Source: Nitrososphaeraceae archaeon
GTDB taxonomy: Archaea; Thermoproteota; Nitrososphaeria; Nitrososphaerales; Nitrososphaeraceae
Assembly: GCA_035250975.1 (NCBI GenBank)
Contig: DATFEP010000004.1
Coordinates: 31,227-95,226, forward strand
Reading direction: 5' to 3'
Length of the DNA: 64,000 nucleotides
The position numbers and the translations under genes were made by a program. Within the stretch, counting starts at the first letter, position 1; the number at the start of each line of letters is the position of its first letter. The notes below the pieces were generated by a model. The model did no database searches and was not told the DNA's origin. It was given only the letters and a program-made list of their open reading frames with translations. Below are positions 5,948 through 34,373 of the stretch, in pieces.

Positions 5948-5978
5948 TTTAAGAAAAAATTAAATTTTTGTAAAAAAG

Positions 5979-6554
5979 TTATTCCTTCCACTTGATAGAA
6001 CATCCTATAGAAGGATCGAAATCCTTTTCTATTCTTTCTACATTTAGTATTTTTTTTATGTTTTCATGCATTATGTGTTTCTGTGGCTTCGATCCTGGCT
6101 CCATCGCATCATTTATTCTCCCATGAAAAACCAAAGTTTTATTCGAATCGAACAAAAATGGATCTGGAGTACATACAGCACCATATAACTTTGCAATCTC
6201 TTGTGTTTCATCTATAAGATATGGGAAATTCAAGTTATTTTGTTTTGCAAATTCCTTCATGTTATCAAAACCTTCATCTTGATAAGAAGGATCATTACTA
6301 TTGATTGCGATTATTTGAAGGTCATCAGTATTAAATGTTGACTGCAAAACAACAATGTCATTTATTCTTGCTTTAACAAATGGGCAGTGGTTACAAATAA
6401 AAATAACCAACAAAGTCCTGCTGTTAAAATCATTTAATGAATAATTTTTTTCATCTATACCTTTTAGAGTAAAATGAGGAGCTTTCTGACCTGTTACTAA
6501 TTTCTGATTTGAGAAAGTTCTGACCATAAACCAAGAAATATTATTCAGGTACAT
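5979..6554 (-). CDS. Thioredoxin-fold AhpC/TSA (PRX-like) redoxin
   Basis: FICNHCPFV, AVCTPDPFLFD, SIGCSIKW. The true start is probably the second Met (MVRTF). Confidence 0.88.
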   Translation of the reverse strand: MYLNNISWFMVRTFSNQKLVTGQKAPHFTLKGIDEKNYSLNDFNSRTLLVIFICNHCPFVKARINDIVVLQSTFNTDDLQIIAINSNDPSYQDEGFDNMKEFAKQNNLNFPYLIDETQEIAKLYGAVCTPDPFLFDSNKTLVFHGRINDAMEPGSKPQKHIMHENIKKILNVERIEKDFDPSIGCSIKWKE

Positions 6555-6608
6555 ATATTTTCGTTTTCGATTATATGTTCGATTATTTAGAAAAGTGGAT
6601 ATGATAAG

Positions 6609-6830
6609 TTAATGAATGGTATTGTTTTTTGTAAATATGAATACAGATTCACCATTAGTGTCACCATAACAATATTTGAACCTATATCCTCCACGTCTAA
6701 TCAAACTTCCAACAGAATATGATAATATTGACTTATTTCTTACTACCAACAATGATCCGTATGGCATGCTCTGAATTTCAGCATTGTATCCATTAGATAA
6801 TATCTTTCCTAATAGGTCTATTGGTCTCAA
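6609..6830 (-). CDS. Small hypothetical protein
   Basis: 73-aa ORF co-oriented with its neighbours; no recognised motif. Confidence 0.5.
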   Translation of the reverse strand: MRPIDLLGKILSNGYNAEIQSMPYGSLLVVRNKSILSYSVGSLIRRGGYRFKYCYGDTNGESVFIFTKNNTIH

Positions 6831-6977
6831 TGTTATACTCGGTACAAATAAAATAGAGAAAATGATAAAATGTTCTGTCTATTTATACAAGCTAATAGGT
6901 ATAAACAATTTTAATGAATAATTTTTTCCAATTCTTGCAAACTTTCTAAATTTTTTTTAAAAAAATACCACATATTG

Positions 6978-7640
6978 TTATTCTGAATTTAATATTACAA
7001 CTTCGCAAACTTTGACGAGTTCCTTAAATTTATTAGCATCTATCTCTGTCCCTACGATGGTCCCATAATGCATAGGAATAGCGGCCTTTGAAGGTTTTAT
7101 CATGTTATTTATGGCATTAGCTGCTTCTTCTGCTGTCATTACGTATACTCCTGATACTGGAACTAATGCAATATCAGGTTTAATCTCATTCATCTCGGGA
7201 ATTGCATCTGTATCTCCGGAGTGATATATCCTTGTGCCGTTAGTTGTGATTATAAATCCTACCTTTTTATCTTCTTTTGGATGATAATTTTTATCTATGT
7301 TGTATGCAGGCACAACCTCAATATCGATACCATCTTGCAGTATTTTTTGACCTGGTTCTACTTCTTTTATATTTTTGAATCCTTCTTGTTTTAATTTTTC
7401 TACACATTCTGCTGCTGCAATAATCGATGTTTTTTCGTTATTGATTATACGTAGATCTTCTGGACTTAAATGATCGAAATGATTATGTGAAATTAAAATT
7501 AGGTCTGCATCGTGTTCGTTATGTTTTTCCTTGAGTTTGTATGGATCAATATATACTATTTTGTCTTCATTATTTACTATTTTGTATCCATCATGACCAA
7601 GCCAATATATATTAATATTATTAAATTCCATATTTTTCAA
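6978..7640 (-). CDS. MBL-fold metallo-hydrolase (UPF0173/UlaG-like)
   Basis: WLGH, IDPY, SHNHFDH, YHSGDT, IPMHYGT. Confidence 0.92.
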   Translation of the reverse strand: MKNMEFNNINIYWLGHDGYKIVNNEDKIVYIDPYKLKEKHNEHDADLILISHNHFDHLSPEDLRIINNEKTSIIAAAECVEKLKQEGFKNIKEVEPGQKILQDGIDIEVVPAYNIDKNYHPKEDKKVGFIITTNGTRIYHSGDTDAIPEMNEIKPDIALVPVSGVYVMTAEEAANAINNMIKPSKAAIPMHYGTIVGTEIDANKFKELVKVCEVVILNSE

Positions 7641-7672
7641 TATTCTATTTCAAATTTAAATTTGTCTATTGC

Positions 7673-8047
7673 TTAATTGTTCACTACTATCATCTTGTTT
7701 TTTCTCAATGATATTACTAAAGTGTTCTGAGAAATTAATCGTCTAATTAGATCCTTGTCAATAGTTGCGACAGCACATTTATTAAAATAGGCATACTCCA
7801 CTAAATTATCATCAATATGTTTAGTTCTTGATGTTTTTATCTTCTTAAATCTTTTAGAAATTTCTAAAGCTAGTTTAGCGTCTCTTGACCTTCGAGGATT
7901 AGAACTAACGAGTTTGATTAATTCTTCAATCACTACATCAGGTATCAAGAAATTAATCTTACCAAACATATTCTCAATGTTTTCCAATAATTTGGTTGGT
8001 TTTGTCACTAAGACTATAAAAAAACTTGTATCGCATATGACATCCAT
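7673..8047 (-). CDS. PIN-domain nuclease (archaeal Fcf1/Utp24-like)
   Basis: VICDTSF, VIEEL, IDD, VATIDKDL acidic motifs. Confidence 0.85.
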   Translation of the reverse strand: MDVICDTSFFIVLVTKPTKLLENIENMFGKINFLIPDVVIEELIKLVSSNPRRSRDAKLALEISKRFKKIKTSRTKHIDDNLVEYAYFNKCAVATIDKDLIRRLISQNTLVISLRKNKMIVVNN

Positions 8048-8114
8048 TATAAAGGCTTATTTTTTGATATTCAAATAAAAATTTTGGAAAATAAAAAATT
8101 TTATTTGTCGATAA

Positions 8115-8504
8115 TTATTTTTCGTATCCTATTCTATCTGCTAGTTTAACTACTTCTCTTCCCTTATTTGTTAAGGCGTTGTATATTCTTGGTTTGCCTC
8201 TGCCTCTTGATTTTTCTTTTTTGATTTTCCTATCAATTAATGCTAGATTTGTTGCTCTTTTCATAAGAGATTGTCCATATCCCCAGCTTCCCATTGTTAT
8301 CAATAACTCTCTTGTGTGTAATTCTTTGTTTGTCTTTAATACACGAAGTAGTGGTATTAACGGCCTTTCGTTAATCAGTATTTTTAGGATGTCCAATTCT
8401 ACTGTAATTGGTACAGATTTTACTGGTTTTACTTCCTTTGGTTTTACCTCTTTTGTTTCTTTTACAATATCCTTTTTAGGTTTTGAACCTTTTTTTGCTA
8501 CCAT
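8115..8504 (-). CDS. Probable winged-helix DNA-binding protein with Lys-rich N-terminal tail
   Basis: Wing-like segment KEKSRGRGKPRIYNALTNKGREV; N-terminus has KEVKP repeats. Confidence 0.65.
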   Translation of the reverse strand: MVAKKGSKPKKDIVKETKEVKPKEVKPVKSVPITVELDILKILINERPLIPLLRVLKTNKELHTRELLITMGSWGYGQSLMKRATNLALIDRKIKKEKSRGRGKPRIYNALTNKGREVVKLADRIGYEK

Positions 8505-9175
8505 TTTTTCTACCGATGTGACTTTACAAAAGATAAATATTTAATCTTTTGTTTCTGTTATCAATTTTAATAGGAATATATTTAGAAAAAAGTTACAAAA
8601 TGAAATATTAGAAACTTAAAATTTATATATGTCTCATTAGACGTAGTGAGGCTAATCAAAATCCTACTTATTCTCTATATGATAACTTAATTTAATAATG
8701 AATTTATTCAATTTGGACGTATTTTCATGTCTTTTACAAGATATTCAGTAATCAATCATTCTTCTTTCAAAAATATCAGAATTAGTGACTTTATACACAA
8801 CTGATTTGAATTAAATAATTTTTTGCTGAATTATATAAGAATATTAGATGTTAAATCTGTTGTAAAAGTACAAAATAAATAAAAGAGGGATTAATTCAAA
8901 TAAAAAATCTTTGTAAAGAAAACACTATTATTGTTTATAGAAAGTTTTTTAATATATCCTTTAGTGCATGAAACAGAGAGAAGAAATCAGTATTTTTCTG
9001 TTGCTGATAAAATAAAAATCATTGACCATTTTGATTGTTGCCTTGTACATAGGAGGTTATAAAATTAGTTACATTAAATAAATAAGGACTAGTGTCTCGT
9101 ATAGAAGTATAAACTATGTTAATTCCTTGTTTATATATATTTTTTATTTTCCTGTATTGATATTGTTTTTATATG

Positions 9176-9313
9176 TCACCAAAAATTTCCTTTATCAGAG
9201 CAGGTTAATTCTGTACCACATTTGCTACACCTTAAATGGCAAGTTTGTAAATGGATCATTATATTCTCACATCTAGGACAATACACAGCCTCTTGAGGAT
9301 ATTTTTCTTCCAT
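9176..9313 (-). CDS. 45-aa zinc-finger microprotein (HVO_2523-like pattern), not in the ORF track
   Basis: Manual translation MEEKYPQEAVYCPRCENIMIHLQTCHLRCSKCGTELTCSDKGNFW; CPxC...C...CxxCG...CSD. Confidence 0.75.
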   Translation of the reverse strand: MEEKYPQEAVYCPRCENIMIHLQTCHLRCSKCGTELTCSDKGNFW

Positions 9314-9387
9314 AATAATCATCTATATTTTTTTGACTTTTAACCTTTTGCAAAGATTAATTAATGATTAAATTGGTTGACTTTTTG

Positions 9388-9789
9388 TTGGTTAATTTCA
9401 AAGTAGTAGTTTCTGATAAAAAGGGTAAGAGTGTGTCACATGAACTTAAAGATAAAGAGGCGCAACCATTTCTTGGTGGAAAAATAGGCGACTCATTTGA
9501 TTCCACCACTATTGGCGTCTCTGGTGGAAAATTAAAAGTCACTGGAGGTAGTGACAAATCTGGCACTCCGATGCGCTCAGATGTTCATGGAGGAGTAAAA
9601 AAATATGTATTGTTGAGCAAGGGGGTAGGGATGAATGATTCTAGCGACGGTAAAAGGATAAGAAAACTCGTTAGGGGAAATATGATCACTGAAGAAATAT
9701 ACCAATTAAATTGTATTTTAGAGGGAGTTAATCTAACACAACCTGAGAATTCAGAGGAAAGTAATGAATCAAATAAACCAGTCACCTAG
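9388..9789 (+). CDS. rps6e: 30S ribosomal protein S6e
   Basis: KVTGGSDKSGTPMRSDVHG, RIRKLVRGN. Start placed at TTG 9388 (MVNFKVVVSD); the track starts at 9364. Confidence 0.95.
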   Translation: MVNFKVVVSDKKGKSVSHELKDKEAQPFLGGKIGDSFDSTTIGVSGGKLKVTGGSDKSGTPMRSDVHGGVKKYVLLSKGVGMNDSSDGKRIRKLVRGNMITEEIYQLNCILEGVNLTQPENSEESNESNKPVT

Positions 9790-15989: not shown

Positions 15990-18776
15990 TCATCTATTTT
16001 CAATTATTACCCGTTTTATTTTTGCATCTTCTAGATTAATTGGTTGGTTGTTTTGATTAGTTTTTTGGGATTCTATCTTTTCAACTATATCTATTCCTTC
16101 AATTACTTTTCCAAAAACTGTATATTGATTGTCTAGAAATTGAGAATCTCTTGTAACTATGAAGAATTGGGAACCCGCGCTATTGGGATCAGAAGTTCTT
16201 GCCATTGACAATATCCCTTTCTTATGAGGTATATCATTGAATTCGGCGTTTATCGTGAAGTTGGGTCCTCCTGTTCCCCATCTCTCTTTTTCTGTTTCAT
16301 TATTCTTTGTGTTGGGATCTCCAGCTTGGATCACAAAATCCTTAACTATTCTGTGGAAAACAACGCCGTCGTAGAAGCCACTCTTTGAGAGCTTAATAAA
16401 ATTTTCCACATGTTTTGGTGCTGCCTTAGGGAAAAATTCTAGCGTGATATTCCCCTGTGTTGTTTCAAGAATTGCAATATTTGCTGATGGTGTCATATCT
16501 GCCTTTATCATGTCCTCAGAATTTACTTTTGTATTATTTGATTCTTTGTCTGTTTTGTTTTTGGTAATGTTTGACTGTTCGCTTGAGACTGGTTTTGGCA
16601 TGTAATCTTTATTTATCTGATACAATAATACTCCAAAAACAATGTCATCCATGTTATTTTCAAAACTTGGTGATGAATAAACAAGTGTTAATGGTTGATC
16701 ATTTGTACCATCAATTGGATATTTAATATCCTTCACATTGATAGCAATTGTTCCTGACGAGTAATCTGGCTGTAAATTAGCTAACATACCATTATTAACA
16801 GAAGCATATTGAACAGGTGTGAATGGAGTAATTTTTCCTAGTAACGTATTATTCCAAAAGTTTGAATTTGGTGTGAAACCATCGTCTTGAACATAATCTC
16901 TCTCATTAAATCCACCTATTCTCATGAACCATTGTTTTTTGCTTTCGTCTCCACCGCTTCCAAGGGTATAGAAGGCATTACCATCAGGCCCTTGGTGTCT
17001 GTCTGCAACGATATATACTAATATATAATCCGCCTTGAGATCTTTAGCGATGGTCATTCCAGTTTCTGGGTCACTCATAAGCATTTTTGCGATGGTCTGT
17101 ATCCTTGTCTGATTAATAGTGGCATTATCTGCCAATGTTATTCTATTTCCAAGAGTCGTAATCCAATAACCGTAATCCCACCACGAAGCAATGACTGAAT
17201 CCTTAGGCGTGTTATTAGATATCCAATCCAACGCATCGGTCCAATCATCAACTTGAATCCTAAATCCTGTTGCGCCATTAGCGATAGAAGGCGGAATATC
17301 TGCTGAACTTATCCAGTTGAAATTTCTTGGATAAAGGATACCGCCAGTGTCTAGTAATGGAATGGAAACCAAAAAAATGAGTACTACTACATAGGATACC
17401 TTTACTAACGATTTTACTTGAGGTGAAATCTTTCCTTGTCTAACACTCTTTTTAAATTCCTTTTCGCTTAACCTTCCCTGGCTGGCTACTTTGTATTGAA
17501 GAATACCTCTTGTTATCTCATAAATTCCAATTGAACCAAGCATGACTATTGAAATAGAAGAATAAACCATTAACCTTGCAAAAGTAGCACTTACATACAG
17601 TCCTGTAATACCTATTATCAGTGCAAATATCGTCATGTCATTTCTTTTGGAGAATGCAACTAGGACTCCAAACCCTGCAAAAAATAACAGAATAGAATAA
17701 TCAGTAAAATAATCTACTACAGTGGGCGTGGAGTGTTCTGCAACAGATTCCACAAGGGGAATTTGAGATGATAAAAATGGATTTATTGCGTTTAGGTATC
17801 TAAATGACGATGGCTGATAAGCTCCAGCAGCAACAATGCCTATGGCTAGAGTTATGAATATTGCCAAGCTAGCAATAAGATTCCGCGTAATTTTTGATTG
17901 TTTACTTTTTTCCCTGATTATAGATCCGATCACACAAAATAGAGCACCCCCAATTAATGCTATACCAGGGAGTCCTATAACAAAAGATAATCCCGGTCTA
18001 GGAAACGCTCCTGCTGCGATTAAAGTAACAATGGTAAATATTACCACTGCAGATACAATTGATTTTGAATCTTTTCTAATAAACGGTAACGCAAAGAAAA
18101 AGATAGCTAATGGTATGCTAAAATATTGTATTCCTCCCCATGAAGCATTAGCCAATCCCAAAATTAATCCAGCTCCTACTACCTTTACAATTGTTATTCG
18201 AAGATTCTTTTCCTTTATTGCAGAGAGAAAAAGATAAATCGATAGAATTCCGAGGAATAATCCCAAAGGTTCTGATTTGAACCAGCCCAAATTCCCTCTC
18301 TGAATTATTGCGGGCATAAATGCAAATAACAAACTTGCAAACATTCCAGCTGTAGTACTACTGATAATTCTCACGAATGCAAAAATAACTATTGTGGTAA
18401 GAGAACCGATCACTACCGGGAACATTATCACAAAATCAAGCAACGATGACCCAAAACCAAATATCTTGTATAGTACTGCTGCTGTGAGGTGAAGTCCAAC
18501 TTGTGAAGATTTTGGAACATCTCTACCTTCTGGATACCAAGACATGTTATCATGCCAATGAAGATATTCGGAAAAACCGTTGTCCACTATGTATTTTGTT
18601 GCTCTATAATCAAAATACGGATCAAATTCATTTAGCACGAAACCGTACTTGATTGGATACGATCTCATTATAAAAGCAGTCGAAAAAGCAATTATCAAAA
18701 CTGCGATTACGAGTAAATGTTTAGTTCTAAAATCAAAAGAATTTACACTGAATAATATTTCATTTCCTTGTAACAT
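15990..18776 (-). CDS. aglB: Oligosaccharyltransferase AglB (STT3) fused to a C-terminal cyclophilin-type PPIase
   Basis: EFDPYF, many TM helices, SVAEH, WWDYGYW, DESK; C-terminal FHRIVKDFVIQAGDP, SMART, AGSQFFI, LDNQYTVFGKV. Confidence 0.95.
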   Translation of the reverse strand: MLQGNEILFSVNSFDFRTKHLLVIAVLIIAFSTAFIMRSYPIKYGFVLNEFDPYFDYRATKYIVDNGFSEYLHWHDNMSWYPEGRDVPKSSQVGLHLTAAVLYKIFGFGSSLLDFVIMFPVVIGSLTTIVIFAFVRIISSTTAGMFASLLFAFMPAIIQRGNLGWFKSEPLGLFLGILSIYLFLSAIKEKNLRITIVKVVGAGLILGLANASWGGIQYFSIPLAIFFFALPFIRKDSKSIVSAVVIFTIVTLIAAGAFPRPGLSFVIGLPGIALIGGALFCVIGSIIREKSKQSKITRNLIASLAIFITLAIGIVAAGAYQPSSFRYLNAINPFLSSQIPLVESVAEHSTPTVVDYFTDYSILLFFAGFGVLVAFSKRNDMTIFALIIGITGLYVSATFARLMVYSSISIVMLGSIGIYEITRGILQYKVASQGRLSEKEFKKSVRQGKISPQVKSLVKVSYVVVLIFLVSIPLLDTGGILYPRNFNWISSADIPPSIANGATGFRIQVDDWTDALDWISNNTPKDSVIASWWDYGYWITTLGNRITLADNATINQTRIQTIAKMLMSDPETGMTIAKDLKADYILVYIVADRHQGPDGNAFYTLGSGGDESKKQWFMRIGGFNERDYVQDDGFTPNSNFWNNTLLGKITPFTPVQYASVNNGMLANLQPDYSSGTIAINVKDIKYPIDGTNDQPLTLVYSSPSFENNMDDIVFGVLLYQINKDYMPKPVSSEQSNITKNKTDKESNNTKVNSEDMIKADMTPSANIAILETTQGNITLEFFPKAAPKHVENFIKLSKSGFYDGVVFHRIVKDFVIQAGDPNTKNNETEKERWGTGGPNFTINAEFNDIPHKKGILSMARTSDPNSAGSQFFIVTRDSQFLDNQYTVFGKVIEGIDIVEKIESQKTNQNNQPINLEDAKIKRVIIENR

Positions 18777-19344: not shown

Positions 19345-20334
19345 TTATCTATACAAGGATGCATATATGAAAGGTAGTAGAGTTGTAATTTCTCCATGTA
19401 TCGTTACTTGTTTTGCATTTACGTTTACCTTGTTCCATGATATTGCTTCTCTCACTTCAGCTCCACTTAGACTTCCATCCCACTCATTTGCAGTGGTAAC
19501 ATATACAGCATAATCTAGACCATCCCTAAATTGGTTCCACCATAATGTATGGTGTTTTGATATTCCTCCACCTAGCATTAAAGCACCTGTTTTTTTTGCA
19601 TCGAATACAAGATCCGAAATTCTTGATTGGTCTTTCAATAAATTTAGTACAAAATCCTTGTGTTGCTGATAAAATAACCATATTTGGCTTCCAACCGCTC
19701 CGTCAACCAAACCAGGAACAATCACTGGAATCTTATTCTTATGTGCCCAATATAAAATGGAATTATCGTCTAATTTGCTACCAATGTAATCCACAATTTC
19801 ATGACCAGAAACTTCTTTATGTTTGTCATAATACTCCAAAAGAAAATGTTGAACTTTGTTTTCGATTAATGGTCCGTAATTTTTAGTTGGAATAAATACG
19901 TTTCCTAATCTATGTATATTTCGTTTCTTCAAATAACTATCATTAATATTAAATTCTCCTGCATAATATTTTCCAAATGTTTTAGCAACATCATGATCTA
20001 AAGCGCCGCATGTAGTTATTATACAATCAAACATCTTTCTTTTTATCATATCTTTTACGATACCTCTTGCTCCGGTGGAAATAATAGCGCCAACAAAGGA
20101 TAAGAAACGTGTACATTGATTGTCATCTATCATATTCCTTGTAATATTTATCGCCTTCGTTAAATTTGTTGATTCAAATCCACCGGAATAAGACATTTGA
20201 CTTATTATTTCCTTCAAATCATTTTTTTTAATTTCATAATCTATTATGTCATAATTTTTAATGCTTTTACTCTTATCATTATTTATCATATCAAGAGTCT
20301 TATAAGTATCAATATAAAATATCTTCTGTCTCAT
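19345..20334 (-). CDS. dys: Deoxyhypusine synthase
   Basis: GGGISKHH, WDGSLSGA..EAISWNKV with the active-site Lys. The start may lie further downstream. Confidence 0.92.
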   Translation of the reverse strand: MRQKIFYIDTYKTLDMINNDKSKSIKNYDIIDYEIKKNDLKEIISQMSYSGGFESTNLTKAINITRNMIDDNQCTRFLSFVGAIISTGARGIVKDMIKRKMFDCIITTCGALDHDVAKTFGKYYAGEFNINDSYLKKRNIHRLGNVFIPTKNYGPLIENKVQHFLLEYYDKHKEVSGHEIVDYIGSKLDDNSILYWAHKNKIPVIVPGLVDGAVGSQIWLFYQQHKDFVLNLLKDQSRISDLVFDAKKTGALMLGGGISKHHTLWWNQFRDGLDYAVYVTTANEWDGSLSGAEVREAISWNKVNVNAKQVTIHGEITTLLPFIYASLYR

Positions 20335-20386: not shown

Positions 20387-21466
20387 TTGCATAATAAACA
20401 TTCGTTTAAGGGTAAAAAAATAGACCCTCCAAAAGTTTCTCCAAACATGTCTATTTCAGATCTTATTTCTTTCTACAGCTCTACTGGCTTTAATGCTAGG
20501 AGATTGGCTGAAGCAGCGGAAATGTTCAAGAAAATGATAGATTCTGATGCTACTGTCTGTCTGACAATTTCCGGAGCAATGTCCCCAATTGGTTTAGGAG
20601 GTTGTATTTCTACTCTTATAGAAAAAGGTTATGTAGATTGGATTATTACAACTGGAGCAAATGCGTATCACGATCTCCACTTCGCTTATGGTCTCCCTGT
20701 TCGCCAAGGTCACTTTGATGTAGACGATGATATCTTGTATTCGAAGCAGATTGTTAGGATATATGATGTATACATAAAAGAAATAGAAACACTTCAAAAG
20801 CAAGATGATATCATTCAAAATGAAATTGCAAAAATTAACGTAGGAGATTCTACTTCATCGTTGTCTTCATCTGATATTTCTTTTTATTTAGGAAAAGCAG
20901 CCTCAAACAATTCTCATTTTCCAGAAAAGTCGTTTATGGTTTCAGCTTATAATAATAATGTTCCAGTGTACATTCCTGCAATAACTGATTCATCTATAGG
21001 AATGAATATGCTTCCATTACTATTTGAGTCAAAATTACCTAACTATAATCTTATTTCAGATATTGCCGAATCAGCAGCAATTTTGTGGAAAACCAAATTA
21101 TCCGGAGGTATTGAATTAGGCGGAGGTGTCCCAAAAAATTTCTTCCAACAAACTGGTCCAACACTCTATCAAATTTTAAAGATTAAAGAAGGTGGACACG
21201 ATTATGTCATACAATTGACAGATGCGAGACCTGATACTGGGGGCCTTTCCGGAGCAACTATCCAAGAAGGAAAAAGCTGGGGAAAAATCAAGTCGTCTCA
21301 CACGGGTAACGTAATAGTATATGGTGATTCTTCTGTGTATTTCCCAATACTCTGTTCATACGTTCTATCCGAATGCCAACAAAGAAAACCAAAACAGCTC
21401 TACACTTTAAAAAATCAGTACGTAAGGGAAATGAAATCTGAATATCTTAAAAGAAAGTATGTATAA
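20387..21466 (+). CDS. Deoxyhypusine synthase-like paralog (homospermidine synthase-like)
   Basis: TGANAYHDLH, GGGVPKNF, DARPDTGGLSGAT..EGKSWGKI. Confidence 0.88.
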   Translation: MHNKHSFKGKKIDPPKVSPNMSISDLISFYSSTGFNARRLAEAAEMFKKMIDSDATVCLTISGAMSPIGLGGCISTLIEKGYVDWIITTGANAYHDLHFAYGLPVRQGHFDVDDDILYSKQIVRIYDVYIKEIETLQKQDDIIQNEIAKINVGDSTSSLSSSDISFYLGKAASNNSHFPEKSFMVSAYNNNVPVYIPAITDSSIGMNMLPLLFESKLPNYNLISDIAESAAILWKTKLSGGIELGGGVPKNFFQQTGPTLYQILKIKEGGHDYVIQLTDARPDTGGLSGATIQEGKSWGKIKSSHTGNVIVYGDSSVYFPILCSYVLSECQQRKPKQLYTLKNQYVREMKSEYLKRKYV

Positions 21467-26419: not shown

Positions 26420-27829
26420 ATGAATTTTTCAGTCGTCTTTTTTTTGACAATCTTTATTGGATTGTTTATCATTCCTCATTTAGGTGAAATACAATTTGTT
26501 TATCCACAACAAATGAATGAAGATAATCCTGTAGATTCCTTTACTAGACCAGTATCAGTTAAAATTACATCTCACTCGGAGGGGGAGAAAGTACCTGTTG
26601 GAAAGTTGACTATTTCAGGGATATCAAGTGACGATTCGGACAGAAATTGTTTGGTATATGTAGATTGGAATAACAAGAAACCGTTTCAGCAAGTTAGAGC
26701 GTCTGGTCCTGGCGGAGTAGATGATTTTTCTGAATGGTTTTTTATTTATGATTCGAATTACCACCAAATAATGGAAGGAAACAATGACCTTACCTCCAAG
26801 ATAATGTGCGTAGATGATAATGCTCAGTCCGGAACAAAATGGTACTCAATAAATTTGATAGGAATTTTGAACCCTTCTATGGTTGAATCCATCCAAAGGA
26901 ATAACACTGTGAAAATGCCAGATGAACCCTTTCAAAATATTATTCCCGGTTTTAACTCCAATCCTGAAAACATAATAGGAGAAAACAATTTACCAAATCC
27001 AAATCTTCCATCAGTCAAAGAACCTTCACAGAATATTATTCCCGGTTTTAACTCCAATCCTGAAAACATAATAGGAGAAAACAATTTACCAAATCCAAAT
27101 CTTCCATCAGTCAAAGCAGGTTTAAAACCCTTGCCAAATTCAGATGGAAATGATGCTATTTATGAAGAAAATAGGGAAATCGAATCCATACCTCAAACCA
27201 ATACTTCTATTCTGGAAACAAATATGACGAACTTCCAGAATATTCAAAACAACTTTACTAATGTCAATAATGATTCTGGGATTGATATGATTGATGCCAC
27301 TAATGATCAAATAACTGTTGAGGAAAATTCAAATAATTCCTCCATAAATACAAATAATCTCAATATTCCAATTTTTGATGAAAACACAATGAGGGATAAT
27401 AATTTGAATTTAACTTCTGAAAAAAGAACAAATGAAGTGTTATCTGACAAATTCAACGTAATTCTTTCTTTACCTGATAACATTGCTTTAGGTAATACAT
27501 ATACCTTAGAAATTTCAGTAATTAATAATGGTTCCTTGCCAATACACGATGCCATTATATCTGGTGAGATATACAACAGTGATAGCTTAACTTATGACAA
27601 AATAAAATTTTTTGGCAAGACAGATATTGACGGTTCCTACAAATTTCCATTAGAGATTAATAAAATTTTTCCAACGGGAGAATATAGTATTAAAGTTTTA
27701 GCTACAAAACTTGGATCTCCAGACAGTGTTGTTTCTAAATCCTTTATGGTATCAGATAATTTTAAATCATCTAACAGTCAAGACATACCTTTAGGAGGTA
27801 ACGTTACAAATGAAGTTAAAAATAATTAA
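26420..27829 (+). CDS. Secreted or surface protein: N-terminal Ig-like domain, Asn-rich linker, C-terminal Ig-like domain
   Basis: Signal peptide; VKITS...LTISGISSD...C.VYVDWNNKKPFQ...GPGGVDDFSEW...EGNNDLTSKIMC; many N-x-S/T sequons. Confidence 0.8.
   Translation: MNFSVVFFLTIFIGLFIIPHLGEIQFVYPQQMNEDNPVDSFTRPVSVKITSHSEGEKVPVGKLTISGISSDDSDRNCLVYVDWNNKKPFQQVRASGPGGVDDFSEWFFIYDSNYHQIMEGNNDLTSKIMCVDDNAQSGTKWYSINLIGILNPSMVESIQRNNTVKMPDEPFQNIIPGFNSNPENIIGENNLPNPNLPSVKEPSQNIIPGFNSNPENIIGENNLPNPNLPSVKAGLKPLPNSDGNDAIYEENREIESIPQTNTSILETNMTNFQNIQNNFTNVNNDSGIDMIDATNDQITVEENSNNSSINTNNLNIPIFDENTMRDNNLNLTSEKRTNEVLSDKFNVILSLPDNIALGNTYTLEISVINNGSLPIHDAIISGEIYNSDSLTYDKIKFFGKTDIDGSYKFPLEINKIFPTGEYSIKVLATKLGSPDSVVSKSFMVSDNFKSSNSQDIPLGGNVTNEVKNN
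26924..27115 (+). repeat. In-frame tandem duplication, 2 x 96 bp (32 aa)
   Basis: EPFQNIIPGFNSNPENIIGENNLPNPNLPSVK / EPSQNIIPGF...PSVK; copies start at 26924 and 27020 and are nearly identical. Confidence 0.95.
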
Positions 27830-28333: not shown

Positions 28334-28813
28334 TTATTTTCTAGTAAATTTTTCAATTATTTTTTTATGTTCTGGAAATAAAGAAAGTAGTTTATCCCTC
28401 TCTCCTAACTCATAATGCTCAAATTCAAATCCTGGAATGACTGTACATCCTACAAGTGAATATGACAATTTGTTATTTACTTGTGCTGCTAGCCAATTAT
28501 CACTCTCTATCACAATCTCCAAACTGTCTTTTTTCTTATAATTATTTCCTAATACTTTTCTAGTTAACCTAGAATTTCTTTCATTAATGATAAATAAGGT
28601 TAAACTACTACCATAATAAAAATGCCATATCTCGTCAGCATCTATCTTGTGAAAAGAAGAAAAATCATTACCATCTAGTAGGTAATATATGGATGTTACA
28701 AATGACCTGTTATTTCTACTCCCTTGGGATCGATAGGTCTCTCTAAAGTATCCTCCCTCGGGATGTTTTGAAAGGCATAATTCATTAATCCAATGTGATG
28801 AATTCAATATCAT
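28334..28813 (-). CDS. Cupin_5 (DUF985) protein
   Basis: KHPEGGYFRETY, TSIYYLL, SSFH...DEIWHFY, LVGCTVIPGFEF. Confidence 0.92.
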   Translation of the reverse strand: MILNSSHWINELCLSKHPEGGYFRETYRSQGSRNNRSFVTSIYYLLDGNDFSSFHKIDADEIWHFYYGSSLTLFIINERNSRLTRKVLGNNYKKKDSLEIVIESDNWLAAQVNNKLSYSLVGCTVIPGFEFEHYELGERDKLLSLFPEHKKIIEKFTRK

Positions 28814-28835
28814 CTTGGATAATGAAATTTCTTGG

Positions 28836-28976
28836 TTGAGATATTAATATTTCCACATATTGAGATATTAATATTGTCACTGAATTTTTTTAAGTATCAC
28901 AAATATTAATGTCAGCTCATTTGTTATTTAAAATTAGATTCAGATCCATTAATATTAAAATTCCTCCAAATTGGAG
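28836..28976. promoter_or_regulatory. Candidate operator sites between the divergent cupin and MCO genes
   Basis: TTGAGATATTAATATT twice (28836, 28860) and inverted repeat CTCCAA-A-TTGGAG (28964-28976). Confidence 0.35.
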
Positions 28977-29118
28977 ATTTGGAATTTTGGTTACTTAGGA
29001 ATACGATAGAAAAAAATCACATATTTTTTATTTAAATCTTATATCTAAATTAACTCGTTAAATTTATTATTTGAATATTAGGTGATAGGTACCTTGAACT
29101 TTTAATCCATCACATTAT

Positions 29119-30267
29119 ATGCATATTTCTGAAATTTTTTACATGAGGTATTATCTGTCATATTCCTTAATGTTGGTTGTTATTATGGTTTCGATAATAG
29201 GATTAGGCAATATTGGCTCGGCTATACCACCAGTCGTAGCACAATCTAATGAGAACGGAAATCCCGTTTATCCTTACCCTGTTCTTCACAAGATTGAGAT
29301 GTCTGTGCAGAAAATTGAGAAACCGGGTGATGATTTGTTTGGTTACCAGCTTGATAAACATGAAATTTTCGATCCAAAAAGTGGTGAATTGTTGAATGAT
29401 ATTACAGATCGATATACAAAGGGACCTACCATCCCTGGACCAACATTAATGTTTGAAGAAGGTGATTCTGTTGAATTAACTTTTACTAATCCTGGTAAGT
29501 CAATGAATGGAATATGTAACACTAATCCATCTCCAGAGAATACAGGTGCTCCAGGTAGGGTAAGTATTCACGTCCATGGGATTCATTATTCTATAGCAAG
29601 TGATGGGACTTTAGGAATTCTTAATGGCTTAAGAGACGAAGGTGTTTGCCCCGGAGAATCAATAAAATATCATTACACCGCTGGTCCCGGAACAGCTGGT
29701 ACATGGCCTTATCATGATCATGCGCTTGGTCTGAATCCTTCCGGAATTTATATTGATGGTTCAGAAACATTAGGATTGTTTGGTAATCTTGTAATTGAGA
29801 GTCATACTGGAAAAACAGTGGCCTTGGTTAACGGAATACCAACTAAGGTGAACGTAGCCGATATTGCTAAGGACGTCTTCTGTTATGTTACAGATGATGC
29901 TTTTTGGTGTGACGAAATAGATTACATCAATAACGCTATTCGCACAGCATTATGGGAAAATCCAACTATCGGTGCTAAGGATGGTGACTTGATAAGATTC
30001 CATTTATACGGAATGGGTACCGATTTTCATATCTTTTCATTAACAGGGTATGAATGGCTTGAACCTGGAACAGCGCAGATAATCAAAGATAAAAAATTCG
30101 GGGCTCTCGAAAACCATGTTTTTACTATTCAGGCCAAAAATGGTATTGCTGAATATAGGGACACAATAACATCGCATCTTTTATCTGGAATGAAAGGATC
30201 ATTTATGGTAGATAGTGTTGGAAAAAGTGTTCCTGGAAAATCACCATTGGAGGGAGTTGTAAATTAA
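29119..30267 (+). CDS. Secreted two-domain multicopper oxidase-like protein A (domain 1 ligands intact, domain 2 degenerate)
   Basis: Signal peptide; IPGPTL..EEGD; SIHVHG; WPYHDH; domain 2 reads FHIFSLTG and YRDTITSHLLSGM. Confidence 0.9.
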   Translation: MHISEIFYMRYYLSYSLMLVVIMVSIIGLGNIGSAIPPVVAQSNENGNPVYPYPVLHKIEMSVQKIEKPGDDLFGYQLDKHEIFDPKSGELLNDITDRYTKGPTIPGPTLMFEEGDSVELTFTNPGKSMNGICNTNPSPENTGAPGRVSIHVHGIHYSIASDGTLGILNGLRDEGVCPGESIKYHYTAGPGTAGTWPYHDHALGLNPSGIYIDGSETLGLFGNLVIESHTGKTVALVNGIPTKVNVADIAKDVFCYVTDDAFWCDEIDYINNAIRTALWENPTIGAKDGDLIRFHLYGMGTDFHIFSLTGYEWLEPGTAQIIKDKKFGALENHVFTIQAKNGIAEYRDTITSHLLSGMKGSFMVDSVGKSVPGKSPLEGVVN

Positions 30268-30269
30268 AG

Positions 30270-33200
30270 ATGAACAAATTAAAAAATAATATCATAATGA
30301 TTTTATTTGCAGTAATATTGCTGTCCTCTACATTAACAATTGGGACACAAAATAATGTACACAAACCTGAGCTAGTGGATAGAAACGGAAACACTGGTCA
30401 AATAAAAATCGGTGGGACACATCCTATAATACAAATTGCTGAAGCAACTAGCGAAGAAAAGATGAAAAACGAAATGAGAAACAATGTTCCTTACAAGAAC
30501 ACAAACCAAGATTCTGAAATAAACTACTACGCTGATAAAAAATCATTTCAAGATAATAGTCAATCTAATTCTGACCTTGGCATAATTCATGAGGTAACTA
30601 TCGAATCAAAGGAACTACCAAACGGACAATATGGTTATATTATGAAAAAGCATATAGTAAGAGATGAAGACTCAGAGACTGATTTAACATCTAGGTATCC
30701 TAATTTCCCTACTATCCCTGGTCCTACATTAGAAATTCATGAAGGGGATTTGCTGATCCTTACTTCGATAGATCAGAACGGATCCCAAAAAGTACAGCAA
30801 ATAAAAGCAAAATCACCTGGAACTTTTGAATATTATGGTGAGAATTTTAGAACTTTAGGATTGTTTGGTGCTATAATTGTTGATCCATATGATAATGTTC
30901 CTGCACAATTAAACGGCAAAGTCGTATCAGTTGATCTAAGAGATCTTGAGAAACAATATGTTCTGTTCATGGTGGGTTCTACTTTCTGGGGTCAAGAGAT
31001 TGATTCAAAGCATAATCAAAAACCATTATGGACAAATCCTACATTAGGAGCAGATTTGAATCAGTTAGTCAGGTTCCATGTGTTAGGGGCCTTACATCAG
31101 CATACTTTCCATCTACACGCTCACAGATGGCTGGATCCGGGAACCACAAACATTATTGATACAAAATTGATTTTTCCATATCAGAGTCACTCCTTCATAG
31201 TTGAAGCAGGCGACAAAGTAGGAATTGGCAATTGGCAATATCATTGTCATGTATTTGCTCACATGGAAGCTGGAATGATGGGTACGTTTAAGGTAGGGCC
31301 TGTTGGGAGTTTCACCAAAAGTATACCTGGTGCGTCTCCACTCGATGGAGGGCCAACTGAACAAGGGGACTTCATAACATTTTCTATAACAGATGATCCA
31401 GGAAGATACTTTAAGAACGTAGGCGGAGAAATAAAAATAAAAGACGAAAGAGGAGAGCTTGTAGCATTAACAGATACAACAGAATCATTTGGAGTAGTAG
31501 GTAAAGGAGGAACTGTACACTTCATAATGGACGATACAAATGCTGTACATACGATTACTAGTCTTTTATGGCCATCAGAAGCAAACAATATGCCTATGCA
31601 AACTATAAGCAGCCATAATGAAAAAGTAAACTCTAACCAGAAGCTCAACCAGATATCATTACCCCCACATATGCCATTCGATCAAATTACCGCATATTCT
31701 GGAGGTGGCATAGTAAAACTTGAAACGCCTGGATTGTATGTTTTTACTTGCAAAATACATCCCTATATGTTTGCAGGAGTAATAGCAGATGACCCTGAAA
31801 CGACTGGTTTTGACTTAGGTGATGAGCTTGAATTAAGCACGGGAGATAAAGTAGCCTCTAGTAATGACCTCTCATTAGCTTTATTAAGGACATTCTTCAT
31901 TGCGAATAATCCCTCTAACTGGAAGGATTATAGTACAGATATTCCTTCAGATTTGAAGGATTCTAGTGTTGCCAATTCAGAATGGACACCTAAATTTCCT
32001 CATATTCCAGTAAAAACAGACCAAAAGGACGTATTCTATCTTGATGAAGCACTTATGACTTCTATGAAAGAAACGACTATTCTCGGAAATACACAACAAC
32101 AAATTACCGGACTAGACACAATTCAAAATCCATCTATCCCAGGAGTTGGCGAAGTGTGGATAGATACACAATTTGAGGAAACAGCTAACAAGACAAAACC
32201 AGGAACAGCAACCAAGGTGAATGTCGAGAATTGGAAGGTTGAAAGAAAGGTTTCATTGCCTCAAATAAATATGAATCATCCACATAATATGTGGAGTGAC
32301 TCCAATCAAGAAGTGATGTATCAAACTCAATGGTTTGATAATCGGTTGACTGCATTTGACAGAAATACTGGGACATTACTTGATGATATCAAGGTTGGGG
32401 ATGCACCGTCACATGTTATGACAAACCCTACAAATGACCGACTCTATGTTGTGTTAAGCGGTGAACAAGGAGTCGCAGAACTTGATTTTGACAAACAAAA
32501 TAATAAATTCAATATATTGAGAATAATGCCCATGCAAGATTCTGGTCAACTCCCAACACATCCTCACGCACATTGGATTACTCCAAATGGAGAGAAGATG
32601 ATTACTCCAAATCATTTCACGAATGATGTAACTATCTTTGATTTCACCAAAAATCAAGGAAAAGGGGAAATCCAATCCAGAGTAAATACAGGCATGATGC
32701 CCATTGCAACTGGCATGATGCCAGACGGAAAGAAAGCTTACGTCTCTAGCCTGCTTAATAGTACGGTTGATCTTGTAGATATAGAATCAGGTGAGGTGAT
32801 CAAGACTATAAATCTTGCAAAATCAGGTAATTTCTGGCCAATTCAAACCCCAGTTAGTCCAAATGGTCAATACGTAGTTACAGCAAATACATTGTCGGGA
32901 ACAATAGCGGTAATAGATACAGATGCAGATGGCAATGGTGTTTACGATGATCCAGAGTTAGTATTAAACTCAACCTTGCCCTGTGATCCAGGATGTCATG
33001 GGGTTAACTTTGGTGCAAAGAATGGAGTCGACACTAACATAACGAACGATGACGGATACTATGCATATGTTTCTAGCAAATTCTCGAATAGAATGATAGT
33101 CGTAGATGCAGATCCTAACAATGATGGTAATGTAACAGACGCAAAAATCGCTGGTTCCGTATTATTAAGTGGAAATTATTCAAGTACTGGAACGCCAGAA

Positions 33201-33647
33201 TATGAAGTAGATGATGAAATCGTAAAATTTGATGGCATGGGTGGACAAGGGGTATATGCAGTTCCAAATGTATACCCAGGATGGGTCGAAAAATTAGATT
33301 CAACATTTGATAGTCAATTAGCAGATTTGCAGAGAGATCCTATAGGAACATTCAAGGATTTTCATACTCTACCCATTCCGACGTTAACCAATAGCTCAAA
33401 AGATATAGATAGCCCAGAATCATTGCAGTCTCAATATAACGAGGATAAAAAAATCATGTTGAAACAACAAGAAATCATGTTGAAACAACAAGAAATACAG
33501 AAACAAATGATTCAACCGCTGGTAAAAAAAGAACAACAAGAATCATCATCTTCGGCGATGATTAAATCTCATTCCAAGACAGAATCTAGCCTAAACATCC
33601 TTCAACCTAACAACATCTTGGGAATGATACCAATTCCTTATCCATAA
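30270..33647 (+). CDS. Secreted multidomain copper protein B: two-domain MCO (domain 2 intact), cupredoxin, YncE/cd1-like beta-propeller
   Basis: HTFHLHAHRW and YHCHVFAHMEAGM; second T1 site HTITS...CKIHPYM; propeller with NHPHNMW, PSHV, HPHAHW, PGCHG. Confidence 0.9.
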   Translation: MNKLKNNIIMILFAVILLSSTLTIGTQNNVHKPELVDRNGNTGQIKIGGTHPIIQIAEATSEEKMKNEMRNNVPYKNTNQDSEINYYADKKSFQDNSQSNSDLGIIHEVTIESKELPNGQYGYIMKKHIVRDEDSETDLTSRYPNFPTIPGPTLEIHEGDLLILTSIDQNGSQKVQQIKAKSPGTFEYYGENFRTLGLFGAIIVDPYDNVPAQLNGKVVSVDLRDLEKQYVLFMVGSTFWGQEIDSKHNQKPLWTNPTLGADLNQLVRFHVLGALHQHTFHLHAHRWLDPGTTNIIDTKLIFPYQSHSFIVEAGDKVGIGNWQYHCHVFAHMEAGMMGTFKVGPVGSFTKSIPGASPLDGGPTEQGDFITFSITDDPGRYFKNVGGEIKIKDERGELVALTDTTESFGVVGKGGTVHFIMDDTNAVHTITSLLWPSEANNMPMQTISSHNEKVNSNQKLNQISLPPHMPFDQITAYSGGGIVKLETPGLYVFTCKIHPYMFAGVIADDPETTGFDLGDELELSTGDKVASSNDLSLALLRTFFIANNPSNWKDYSTDIPSDLKDSSVANSEWTPKFPHIPVKTDQKDVFYLDEALMTSMKETTILGNTQQQITGLDTIQNPSIPGVGEVWIDTQFEETANKTKPGTATKVNVENWKVERKVSLPQINMNHPHNMWSDSNQEVMYQTQWFDNRLTAFDRNTGTLLDDIKVGDAPSHVMTNPTNDRLYVVLSGEQGVAELDFDKQNNKFNILRIMPMQDSGQLPTHPHAHWITPNGEKMITPNHFTNDVTIFDFTKNQGKGEIQSRVNTGMMPIATGMMPDGKKAYVSSLLNSTVDLVDIESGEVIKTINLAKSGNFWPIQTPVSPNGQYVVTANTLSGTIAVIDTDADGNGVYDDPELVLNSTLPCDPGCHGVNFGAKNGVDTNITNDDGYYAYVSSKFSNRMIVVDADPNNDGNVTDAKIAGSVLLSGNYSSTGTPEYEVDDEIVKFDGMGGQGVYAVPNVYPGWVEKLDSTFDSQLADLQRDPIGTFKDFHTLPIPTLTNSSKDIDSPESLQSQYNEDKKIMLKQQEIMLKQQEIQKQMIQPLVKKEQQESSSSAMIKSHSKTESSLNILQPNNILGMIPIPYP
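33451..33492 (+). repeat. In-frame tandem duplication, 2 x 21 bp (IMLKQQE)
   Basis: aaatcatgttgaaacaacaag repeated exactly. Confidence 0.9.
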
Positions 33648-34373
33648 TTTTTTTATTTTTCATTTAATTTTATAAAATTGGTCGTAAAAAATATTTTCAA
33701 ATGTAAATAGAAAATTGTTTTATTTCTATTTGTTTATAGTTGTGAGCTTTAATGTTGAGTATAACGTAATCAAGAATAAATTTCATTTTAGGAACATTAT
33801 CGATTTCGTCATTTAGTATATCTTGAAACTTGGCTTTTAATTTCTTATTTGGTAGTTCATTTAGAAAAGGATTAATATTAATTTAGTTTGAAAACTCAGA
33901 ATATTATTTCTCATGTTTGAAAATTACTTGGATCGGATTGGAAAAGATGAATATACATTTTTTAATACTATTTTTTTACATAATTTAACATATCACCTCA
34001 CTAAAATTCTAAGGATCTTGCCACTTCAAATAAGGCATTTTTTTTCATTTTAAAAATTTTATCTTATATTTTATGTAGTATAGTAAGTTCCATATTGATT
34101 ATGGTAATAGATTCTTTAAATCTTTAATTAATTTGTATTCATAATTTATACAATCAAGTTCTACAAATTAACGAATATATTCTACTTTCCTTTCTGAAAA
34201 CGGTACAATACTTCTCTGTTTACATAAACTATGAAGATCCTTTGTTTTTTAAATTTTTTCATCCCTATTTTTCTTATCTTCAAATTGTGACTATGATTTC
34301 GACTTGATTTGTTAATATAATATATTCTGAACTTATTTTAAATATAGTGGTGAGACTTTTATATTACGAATAT

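Follow-up and report, generated by a model that had tools for sequence, protein, structure and literature searches.

Genes A and B and their copper ligands

The 64,000-nt window analyzed here (the whole stretch, positions 31,227 to 95,226 of contig DATFEP010000004.1 from a Nitrososphaeraceae archaeon) carries two adjacent genes, A and B, that encode relatives of the two-domain small laccases of the SLAC type, and we propose that their products form one multicopper oxidase (MCO) together. The host assembly comprises 2.49 Mb in 91 contigs and is 94.6% complete. It encodes an archaeal amoA (E = 1.1e-118), from which, together with its Nitrososphaeraceae relatives, it follows that the host is a soil-type ammonia-oxidizing archaeon (AOA), as the initial annotation of the window had assumed. 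Motifs in A and B were placed by HMMER alignment to solved SLAC-type chains, and their conservation was scored in 19 A-type and 19 B-type proteins, each set consisting of 17 frames of other genomes plus those of both host-genome pairs. The genes, their junction, and their ligand motifs are as follows (T1 and T3, type 1 and type 3 copper):

29119..30267, + strand: gene A, open reading frame (ORF) of 382 aa; N-terminal hydrophobic leader and two-domain MCO
30249..30269, + strand: A/B junction; GGAGGGAG at 30249-30256, 8 nt, TAA at 30265-30267, AG, and ATG at 30270
30270..33647, + strand: gene B, ORF of 1125 aa, a single open frame
29569..29577, + strand: A H151-V-H153, domain-1 HxH ligands of the trinuclear center; in 19/19 A-type proteins
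29713..29721, + strand: A H199-D-H201, domain-1 HDH ligands; in 19/19, aligned to SLAC YHDH
30028..30045, + strand: A H304-IFSLT in the position of SLAC HTFHMH, domain-2 HxH lost; HxH in 0/19 A-type proteins
30157..30165, + strand: A R347-D348-T349 in the H-C-H position, T1 Cys replaced by Asp
30582..30914, + strand: B MCO domain 1, shortened (about residues 105-215); HxH segment deleted, Y189-G-E at the HDH position
31101..31124, + strand: B H278-TFH281-L-H283-AH, one T1 His and domain-2 HxH; in 19/19, aligned to SLAC HTFHMHGH
31242..31277, + strand: B H325-C326-H327...H331...M336 (HCHVFAHMEAGM), two T3 His and the T1 Cys, His, and Met; in 19/19, aligned to SLAC HCHVQSHSDMGM

Gene A matches Pfam Cu-oxidase_3 (E = 1.5e-8) and, over both domains, the SLAC-type chains of the PDB (E = 1.5e-9). 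Translation of A may in fact begin at its second ATG, at 29143, because homologs align from A residues 6-9. Gene B has Pfam matches to Cu-oxidase_2 and Lactonase, and its product consists, in order, of a leader, a degenerate MCO domain 1, an intact MCO domain 2, a cupredoxin, a linker, a seven-bladed beta-propeller, and a low-complexity tail. The MCO part extends to about residue 360, leaving some 770 further residues beyond the size of SLAC. Both proteins have the two SLAC-homologous cupredoxin domains of type-B two-domain MCOs (Pfam PF07732, PF07731). Each motif that the initial annotation reported was found at the base given for it there, but B, which it had read as a small laccase ending near 31320, is instead a 1125-aa fusion with a cupredoxin and a beta-propeller, its open frame running on to 33647. 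Only 2 nt separate the A stop codon from the B ATG, a layout that suggests one transcript and coupled translation. Fusion of A and B by read-through or frameshifting was rejected, since the frames differ and a clean TAA lies between them.

The ligand motifs of the two proteins are complementary. In the alignment, HVHG and YHDH of A pair with the domain-1 ligand motifs of SLAC, while in domain 2 the A segments HIFSLTGYEW and YRDTITSH stand opposite SLAC HTFHMHGHRW and YHCHVQSH; the Asp that replaces the T1 Cys is invariant across A proteins (D294 of alignment A2). B shows the opposite arrangement. Its domain 1 still aligns with A and with the unsplit forms described below, but about 45 residues holding the HxH strand are gone, YYGE is found where SLAC has YHDH, and neither domain-1 motif (HxH or HDH) occurs in any of the 19 B-type proteins. 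Domain 2 of B matches the small laccases of the PDB (E = 5.8e-16), with HTFHLHAHRW and YHCHVFAHMEAGM aligned to the SLAC domain-2 motifs HTFHMHGHRW and YHCHVQSH. The domain-2 T1 site (His, Cys, His, Met) is therefore complete in B (H278, C326, H331, M336) and broken in A by the change from Cys to Asp. Neither polypeptide holds the eight His of a trinuclear center, and the full set is obtained only from A (four) and B (four).

Domain-1 HxH and HDH are kept, and domain-2 HxH and HCH absent, in 19/19 A-type proteins, and the reverse is seen in 19/19 B-type proteins. Since the same halves are kept in every member of both sets, the complementarity is not a matter of chance; it persists down to ~38%-45% identity and is of long standing. 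The mirror image that the initial annotation described, with A lacking the domain-2 and B the domain-1 His ligands, is thus a general property of these proteins, and its corollary, that domain 1 of A plus domain 2 of B supply eight His and a T1 site, agrees with the invariant ligands.

With half of the ligands gone in each gene, one or both could also be seen as decaying laccase copies, the losses being without function. We regard this as highly improbable: A and B are both long uninterrupted frames, neither set shows an exception to the pattern at the identities just given, the remaining ligands are invariant, and both genes are found in RNA libraries. In four metatranscriptome runs on soil or outdoor samples, each from a different study, we found RNA contigs that match both genes with 95%-100% likeness, and one contig of 2473 nt, equivalent to 29157-31629, bridges the A/B junction; positions 28700-29047 and 33572-33900 have no cover in any of the four runs. 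The counterparts in Nitrosocosmicus franklandianus, the MCO3 pair NFRAN_2029 and NFRAN_2030, are among the most expressed and most biofilm-induced genes of that organism and rise together, with log2 fold changes in the biofilm of 3.16 and 3.17 and 14073 and 9353 transcripts per million, respectively (PMC12448741).

A predicted complex brings the two half-sites together. We folded A(55-378) with B(100-365), using an 18-row alignment for each, alongside three controls. The A + B fold scored 0.89, 0.88, and 0.89 in three runs, compared with 0.00 for the best control; in a benchmark, 116 of 157 solved complexes but only two of 215 mismatched pairs scored that high. At least 96% of contacts agree among the runs, the partners have a pLDDT of at least 88, and the confident predicted contacts include A H153-B H281 and A H151-B H283. 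As modeled, the complex uses the productive, SLAC-like face between domain 1 of A and domain 2 of B. With the ligands excluded, conservation at the predicted interface is higher than in the rest of the protein, both for A (0.71 vs. 0.49; one of 10000 draws as high) and for B (0.71 vs. 0.54; 33 of 10000), which is mild support, as proximity to an active site by itself favors conservation.

Distribution and unsplit relatives of the pair

Among 151 Nitrososphaeraceae genomes (102 of them of high quality; the tallies include genome G035 and its pair, which are unpublished data), we found A in 33 (24 of the 102 high-quality genomes, and 20 of 21 in the host genus) and B in 34. B lies directly downstream on the same strand at 36 of the 44 places where A occurs, a count that, kin not being independent, describes one lineage rather than 36 separate events. 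At three of the other eight places B has already begun when the contig breaks off, three are on contigs that end within ~600 bp, and the last two are, by their coordinates, within 531 bp of a contig start. At none of the 44 is A followed by a different gene. Apparent lone copies of A or B in seven genomes (G100, G028, G036, G026, G150, G069, and G142) were rejected, all being at contig ends. The co-occurrence survey proposed in the initial annotation thus finds A paired with B wherever the assemblies allow a judgment. ORF clustering of 26 loci revealed no third gene conserved in common across Nitrososphaeraceae beyond A and B.

Outside the family, the search covered a phylum-wide sample of 401 genomes. 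Matches are confined to two families of the same order, Nitrososphaeraceae and Nitrosopumilaceae (nine of 56 genomes), and the 342 genomes from 59 other families of the phylum gave none. The Nitrosopumilaceae matches lie inside single frames of 686-1224 aa, 10 of which we fetched. These unsplit frames hold MCO, cupredoxin, and propeller in the order seen in B, their C-terminal 650 residues being 36%-39% identical to B and their MCO part 33%-36% identical to both A and B. All 10 have domain-1 HxH and HDH and domain-2 HxH, and nine have HCH. Nitrosopumilus ureiphilus and N. sediminis are named as MCO3 holders in the published account (PMC12448741), in keeping with the genomes that bear these frames being relatives of Nitrosopumilus.

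Some unsplit copies depart from the standard form. One is broken by a stop codon, and another (L028, 5580-7718, in genome G210) is truncated to 713 aa and has P-C-Y in place of H-C-H; the latter may be a decaying or diverging variant. An ABC transporter of the NMT1/NitT-TauT type (binding protein, ATPase, and permease) lies directly upstream of the unsplit gene on the same strand at L033 (2935-8907) and five syntenic loci, all in genomes of the Nitrosopumilus type. This neighbor may point to the substrate, or may reflect only synteny at the level of the genus.

In a tree of 47 MCO parts (quick method, unrooted, broken copy L037 left out), A forms one clade (SH-aLRT 99) and B another (99), with the unsplit proteins placed together to one side (78). 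The branching order within A is the mirror image of that within B. Given that an unsplit protein of ~1100 aa holds all the ligands, A and B would have arisen by duplication and reciprocal loss. Judged from the sequences, the simplest history would comprise one duplication of the MCO part of the unsplit gene, reciprocal loss of half-sites, and a later duplication of the whole pair. The ancestor would then be a single protein of ~1100 aa with MCO, cupredoxin, propeller, and all ligands, of a kind that persists in some Nitrosopumilaceae, and it is in Nitrososphaeraceae that the MCO part would have been duplicated, its copies losing opposite half-sites. The view of the locus as a duplicated, subfunctionalized heteromeric oxidase, first put forward in the initial annotation, gains support from the complementary invariant His, the linkage, the unsplit relative, the mirrored clades, and the A + B fold.

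A genome may carry more than one pair. At C12:68537-72536 the host genome has a further pair that shows the same ligand pattern and shares ~45% identity with the first, as well as a third B fragment at a contig start, and G012 has two A and three B. Paralogous pairs (A, A', B, B') might therefore mix, or the stoichiometry might be of another kind, such as an AB heterodimer in which the B cupredoxin fills the gap; that a ring with an odd number of members and two kinds of subunit is inherently asymmetric would also fit such departures from a simple A/B ring. We think them quite unlikely. Several complete genomes, for example G001 and G043, hold a single A/B pair, so one A and one B must suffice, and the pair-by-pair mirroring of the two subtrees is what coevolution of every A with its partner B should produce.

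The host genome also encodes other MCO or NirK-like genes, at C68:756-1082, C87:74262-74951, C15:81823-82125, and C12:11740-12066, one of the four being for a 537-aa NirK-like protein with a C-terminal cupredoxin. In another genus, a frame of 642 aa at G139:C1:158000-158275 matches only the cupredoxin part of B (59% over query residues 369-460); it may encode a cupredoxin-propeller protein without an MCO.

The initial annotation had connected the pair with the hydroxylamine oxidoreductase that AOA appear to be missing. This connection is not supported: Of the Nitrososphaeraceae genomes, 33 of 151 were found to have the pair, and of the Nitrosopumilaceae genomes, nine of 56 have the unsplit form. 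So patchy an occurrence means that the pair is not a universal hydroxylamine oxidase; that role and one in core ammonia oxidation were both rejected, as most genomes of both families have neither the pair nor the unsplit form. MCO3 is also reported to be missing in N. viennensis and N. maritimus (PMC12448741). The A/B pair is an accessory system.

A putative shared trinuclear center and the C-terminal modules of B

On the strength of sequence and model together, we estimate a probability of roughly 75% that A and B are subunits of one exported SLAC-like MCO whose trinuclear center forms only between them and is single in each ring. Domain 1 of A would supply H151, H153, H199, and H201 to the center, and domain 2 of B would supply H281, H283, H325, and H327 together with the T1 site (H278, C326, H331, and M336), which would be wired to the cluster via the H-C-H triad. 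The assembly would be A2B or AB2. In a three-membered ring there is one A-to-B junction of the right polarity, and therefore a single trinuclear center would be expected, with one MCO T1 and one pendant T1 for each B. By analogy with Nmar_1354, electrons would travel from the substrate to the pendant cupredoxin T1 of B, on to the MCO T1 of B, and through the A/B trinuclear center to O2, and the most likely role of the propeller would be to bind either the cell surface or the substrate. That A and B bind each other, take up copper, and have this stoichiometry and electron path is what we infer from the evidence above.

Several points weigh against this proposal. Contigs assembled from RNA are no proof that A and B share one transcript, and DNA may be present in RNA libraries. 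The pass of the fold test may reflect memory of solved SLAC homotrimers, and it shows likeness of interface and not binding. Kinship makes the linkage counts overstate the number of independent observations, and the tree tool warned of long branches meeting. A ring would leave at least one orphan half-site, which is apparently wasteful, and the true assembly may differ. Finally, the third B copy of G012 (L008, G012:C14:36000-48000, frame 5558-8710) is intact and has no adjoining A. It lies beside a transposase-like frame (8972-9646) in a genome that holds two other pairs, and looks like a recent duplication of B alone.

The orphan copy would suit an alternative in which A and B share no cluster: B alone would transfer electrons or be a partial copper protein, its two T1 sites accompanied by a half-site of four His for one or two Cu; A would be a scaffold, chaperone, or surface protein with its own four-His metal site; and the linkage would reflect a shared pathway. 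In principle, the four-His set of each protein could hold metal by itself, and the invariant change from Cys to Asp in A hints at constraint on a supposedly dead site. We nevertheless hold this alternative to be unlikely, as the eight His, invariant in complementary halves, exactly match one SLAC interface, the predicted contact sets the HxH of A on the HxH of B, and the unsplit relative holds all eight. SLAC half-sites, moreover, are solvent-exposed on the faces of the subunits and incomplete without a neighbor.

For the shared-center proposal, the C-terminal modules of B supply the pendant T1 site and the propeller:

31362..31799, + strand: B cupredoxin, about residues 365-510; T1-type ligands H427, C494, H497, and M500 (C-x2-H-x2-M)
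31800..32141, + strand: B linker, about residues 511-624; partly helical, with conserved N550-W551-x-D553-Y554
32142..33284, + strand: B seven-bladed YVTN/lactonase-type beta-propeller, about residues 625-1005; Pfam PF10282, E = 4.7e-11, above the cut-off
33285..33647, + strand: B C-terminal low-complexity tail; repeated MLKQQEI unit, not conserved in relatives

The first of these modules has the Greek-key beta-sandwich and the His...Cys-x2-His-x2-Met arrangement of a cupredoxin, and its ligands are invariant in 25/25 full-length relatives. Its model has a pLDDT of only 72.6; the best folds are plastocyanin and pseudoazurin (probability 1.00), and Foldseek returned plastocyanin 1b3i (E = 8.2e-5, TMt 0.70) together with pseudoazurins. 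There was no Pfam match to this module, and a PDB sequence search with the cupredoxin part alone gave nothing meaningful. In the tail, one RNA-library contig is without 21 nt at 33450, equal to one MLKQQEI unit, a strain difference in repeat number.

The propeller model is of higher confidence (pLDDT 88.6, pTM 0.90). It matches 1l0q_A in fold (Z = 38.8, rmsd 1.9, 295 residues aligned) and in profile (E = 2.7e-30), in keeping with a seven-bladed propeller of the YVTN/lactonase type. Closest to it are hydrazine synthase beta (fold match Z = 32.8) and a propeller from an archaeal S-layer. To our knowledge, neither of these two has a metal at the hub. The NCBIfam match to hydrazine synthase beta is far under its cut-off, and for the C-terminal part of B the best look-alike in the Protein Atlas scored 0.87, under the trust level. 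A copper propeller like that of thiocyanate dehydrogenase or of NosZ, whose copper-sulfide cluster (CuZ) has seven His ligands at the hub, is retained only as part of the tentative extension given below: Neither is among the 29 PDB matches of the propeller profile, and the fold match to NosZ (2iwf_A, Z = 30.9, rmsd 2.8, 316 aligned) is generic, being no better than that of many unrelated propellers. The NCBIfam L-NosZ model gave 37 bits, against a cut-off of 700.

Conserved His and Cys residues line up at the starts of the inner strands of the propeller (H672, H715, H764/766/768, and C905-x3-C909-H910). H715, C905, C909, and H910 are invariant, and H672, H764, H766, and H768 nearly so, four of the six conserved His having one exception each. 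The C905-x3-C909-H910 motif (32982-32999) is invariant in 24/24 propellers and has the form of a variant heme-c binding motif. AOA are said to be without c-heme maturation (PMC11761707), and a disulfide or a metal ligand is more likely here than a heme-c site.

If H672, H715, H764/766/768, C905, C909, and H910 cluster in space at the hub, as we infer from their strand positions, the pair might be a heterotrimeric two-domain MCO with one center in which the propeller does more than anchor the protein and the hub is a new His/Cys-lined metal or substrate site, feeding electrons through two T1 coppers to O2. It would then amount to an extracellular oxidase complete in itself, acting on a small substrate (a nitrogen or sulfur compound or a metal) of importance in the biofilm life of soil AOA. 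We offer this extension tentatively and consider it possible but doubtful.

The neighbors of A and B in the window are housekeeping or unrelated genes. Among the other frames, 15990-18776 (- strand; 928 aa) encodes an unusual fusion, in which an STT3/AglB oligosaccharyltransferase (PF02516, E = 8e-30) is followed at the C terminus by a prolyl isomerase of the cyclophilin type (PF00160, E = 1.6e-50), and two deoxyhypusine synthase paralogs stand divergently, back to back, at 19345-20334 (- strand) and 20387-21466 (+ strand; E = 9e-106 and 4e-82, respectively). The 469-aa frame at 26420-27829 (+ strand) has a hydrophobic leader and Asn-rich low complexity, is without a Pfam family, and carries an exact internal repeat of ~29 aa containing QNIIPGFNSNPENIIGENNLPNPNLPSVK.

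Comparison with known systems

Two-domain MCOs are taken to be homotrimers. In the SLAC-type small laccases (PDB 3cg8, 3tas, and 4m3h), which are the best PDB sequence matches both for A and for domain 2 of B, we find the same two cupredoxin domains, the same four ligand motifs, and a T1 site in domain 2, and the trinuclear center is likewise built at the interface of neighboring chains, where domain 1 of one meets domain 2 of the other. The difference is that the SLAC homotrimer has three complete centers, whereas neither A nor B has all eight His in one chain and one center per ring is possible. The unsplit Nitrosopumilaceae protein (loci L029-L036) shares the three modules of B in the same order, but being the product of one gene with all eight His and the T1 ligands, it could form a SLAC-like homotrimer with three centers.

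MCO4a of AOA (Nmar_1354, PDB 9CCK) is a two-domain MCO followed by a C-terminal pendant cupredoxin, as in B, with the pendant T1 13.5 A from the MCO T1 (PMC11761707). It differs from the pair in having complete ligands in one gene product, in having no propeller, and in belonging to another lineage; B, without domain-1 ligands and with the extra propeller, is not a member of the Nmar_1354-like MCO4 group, and the NH2OH-to-HNO activity of Nmar_1354 is not transferable to A and B.

The MCO3 pair of N. franklandianus corresponds to A and B: N. franklandus protein P0200 and the B frame of genome G001 are identical at 944 of 945 residues, and in the tree the A and B clades include the G001 proteins, which places the window pair in the MCO3 lineage, though as the other paralogous type, ~40%-48% identical. 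MCO1-4 were reportedly defined by Kerou et al. in 2016. In the published account, NFRAN_2029 is annotated with a beta-propeller arCOG and NFRAN_2030 is the adjoining MCO; from order and annotation, we equate NFRAN_2029 with B and NFRAN_2030 with A. The two are described there as "two copies of MCO3" with a proposed role in cell-surface modification in the biofilm, and its main text contains none of the words heteromer, trinuclear, subunit, or propeller and makes no mention of complementary ligands (PMC12448741). On our proposal, either copy expressed alone should be inactive, counting A and B as two oxidases would overstate the oxidase complement of soil AOA, and, given the strong biofilm expression in N. 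franklandianus, the chemistry of the pair is likely to matter for soil nitrifiers.

We found no account of A/B complementarity in the literature, the search not covering Kerou et al. (2016), which may note the missing ligands of MCO3. Queries for an AOA multicopper oxidase with a propeller and hydroxylamine found none, those with Nmar locus tags gave nothing relevant, and for a heterotrimeric two-domain multicopper oxidase only the Nmar_1354 paper was returned (PMC11761707). If the proposal is correct, A and B would be the first natural heteromeric two-domain MCO found in the searched literature.

The closest parallel in layout is with the six-domain MCOs. In these proteins, such as ceruloplasmin, which are eukaryotic single chains, six cupredoxins form a ring with a single trinuclear center at one junction. 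The same layout would be expected of the A/B trimer, with the asymmetry here coming from two separate subunits. The pair would thus show a route to six-domain asymmetry by duplication and reciprocal ligand loss, and if it is indeed a heterotrimer with one center, it would be a living counterpart of the step postulated between homotrimeric small laccases and single-center six-domain oxidases.

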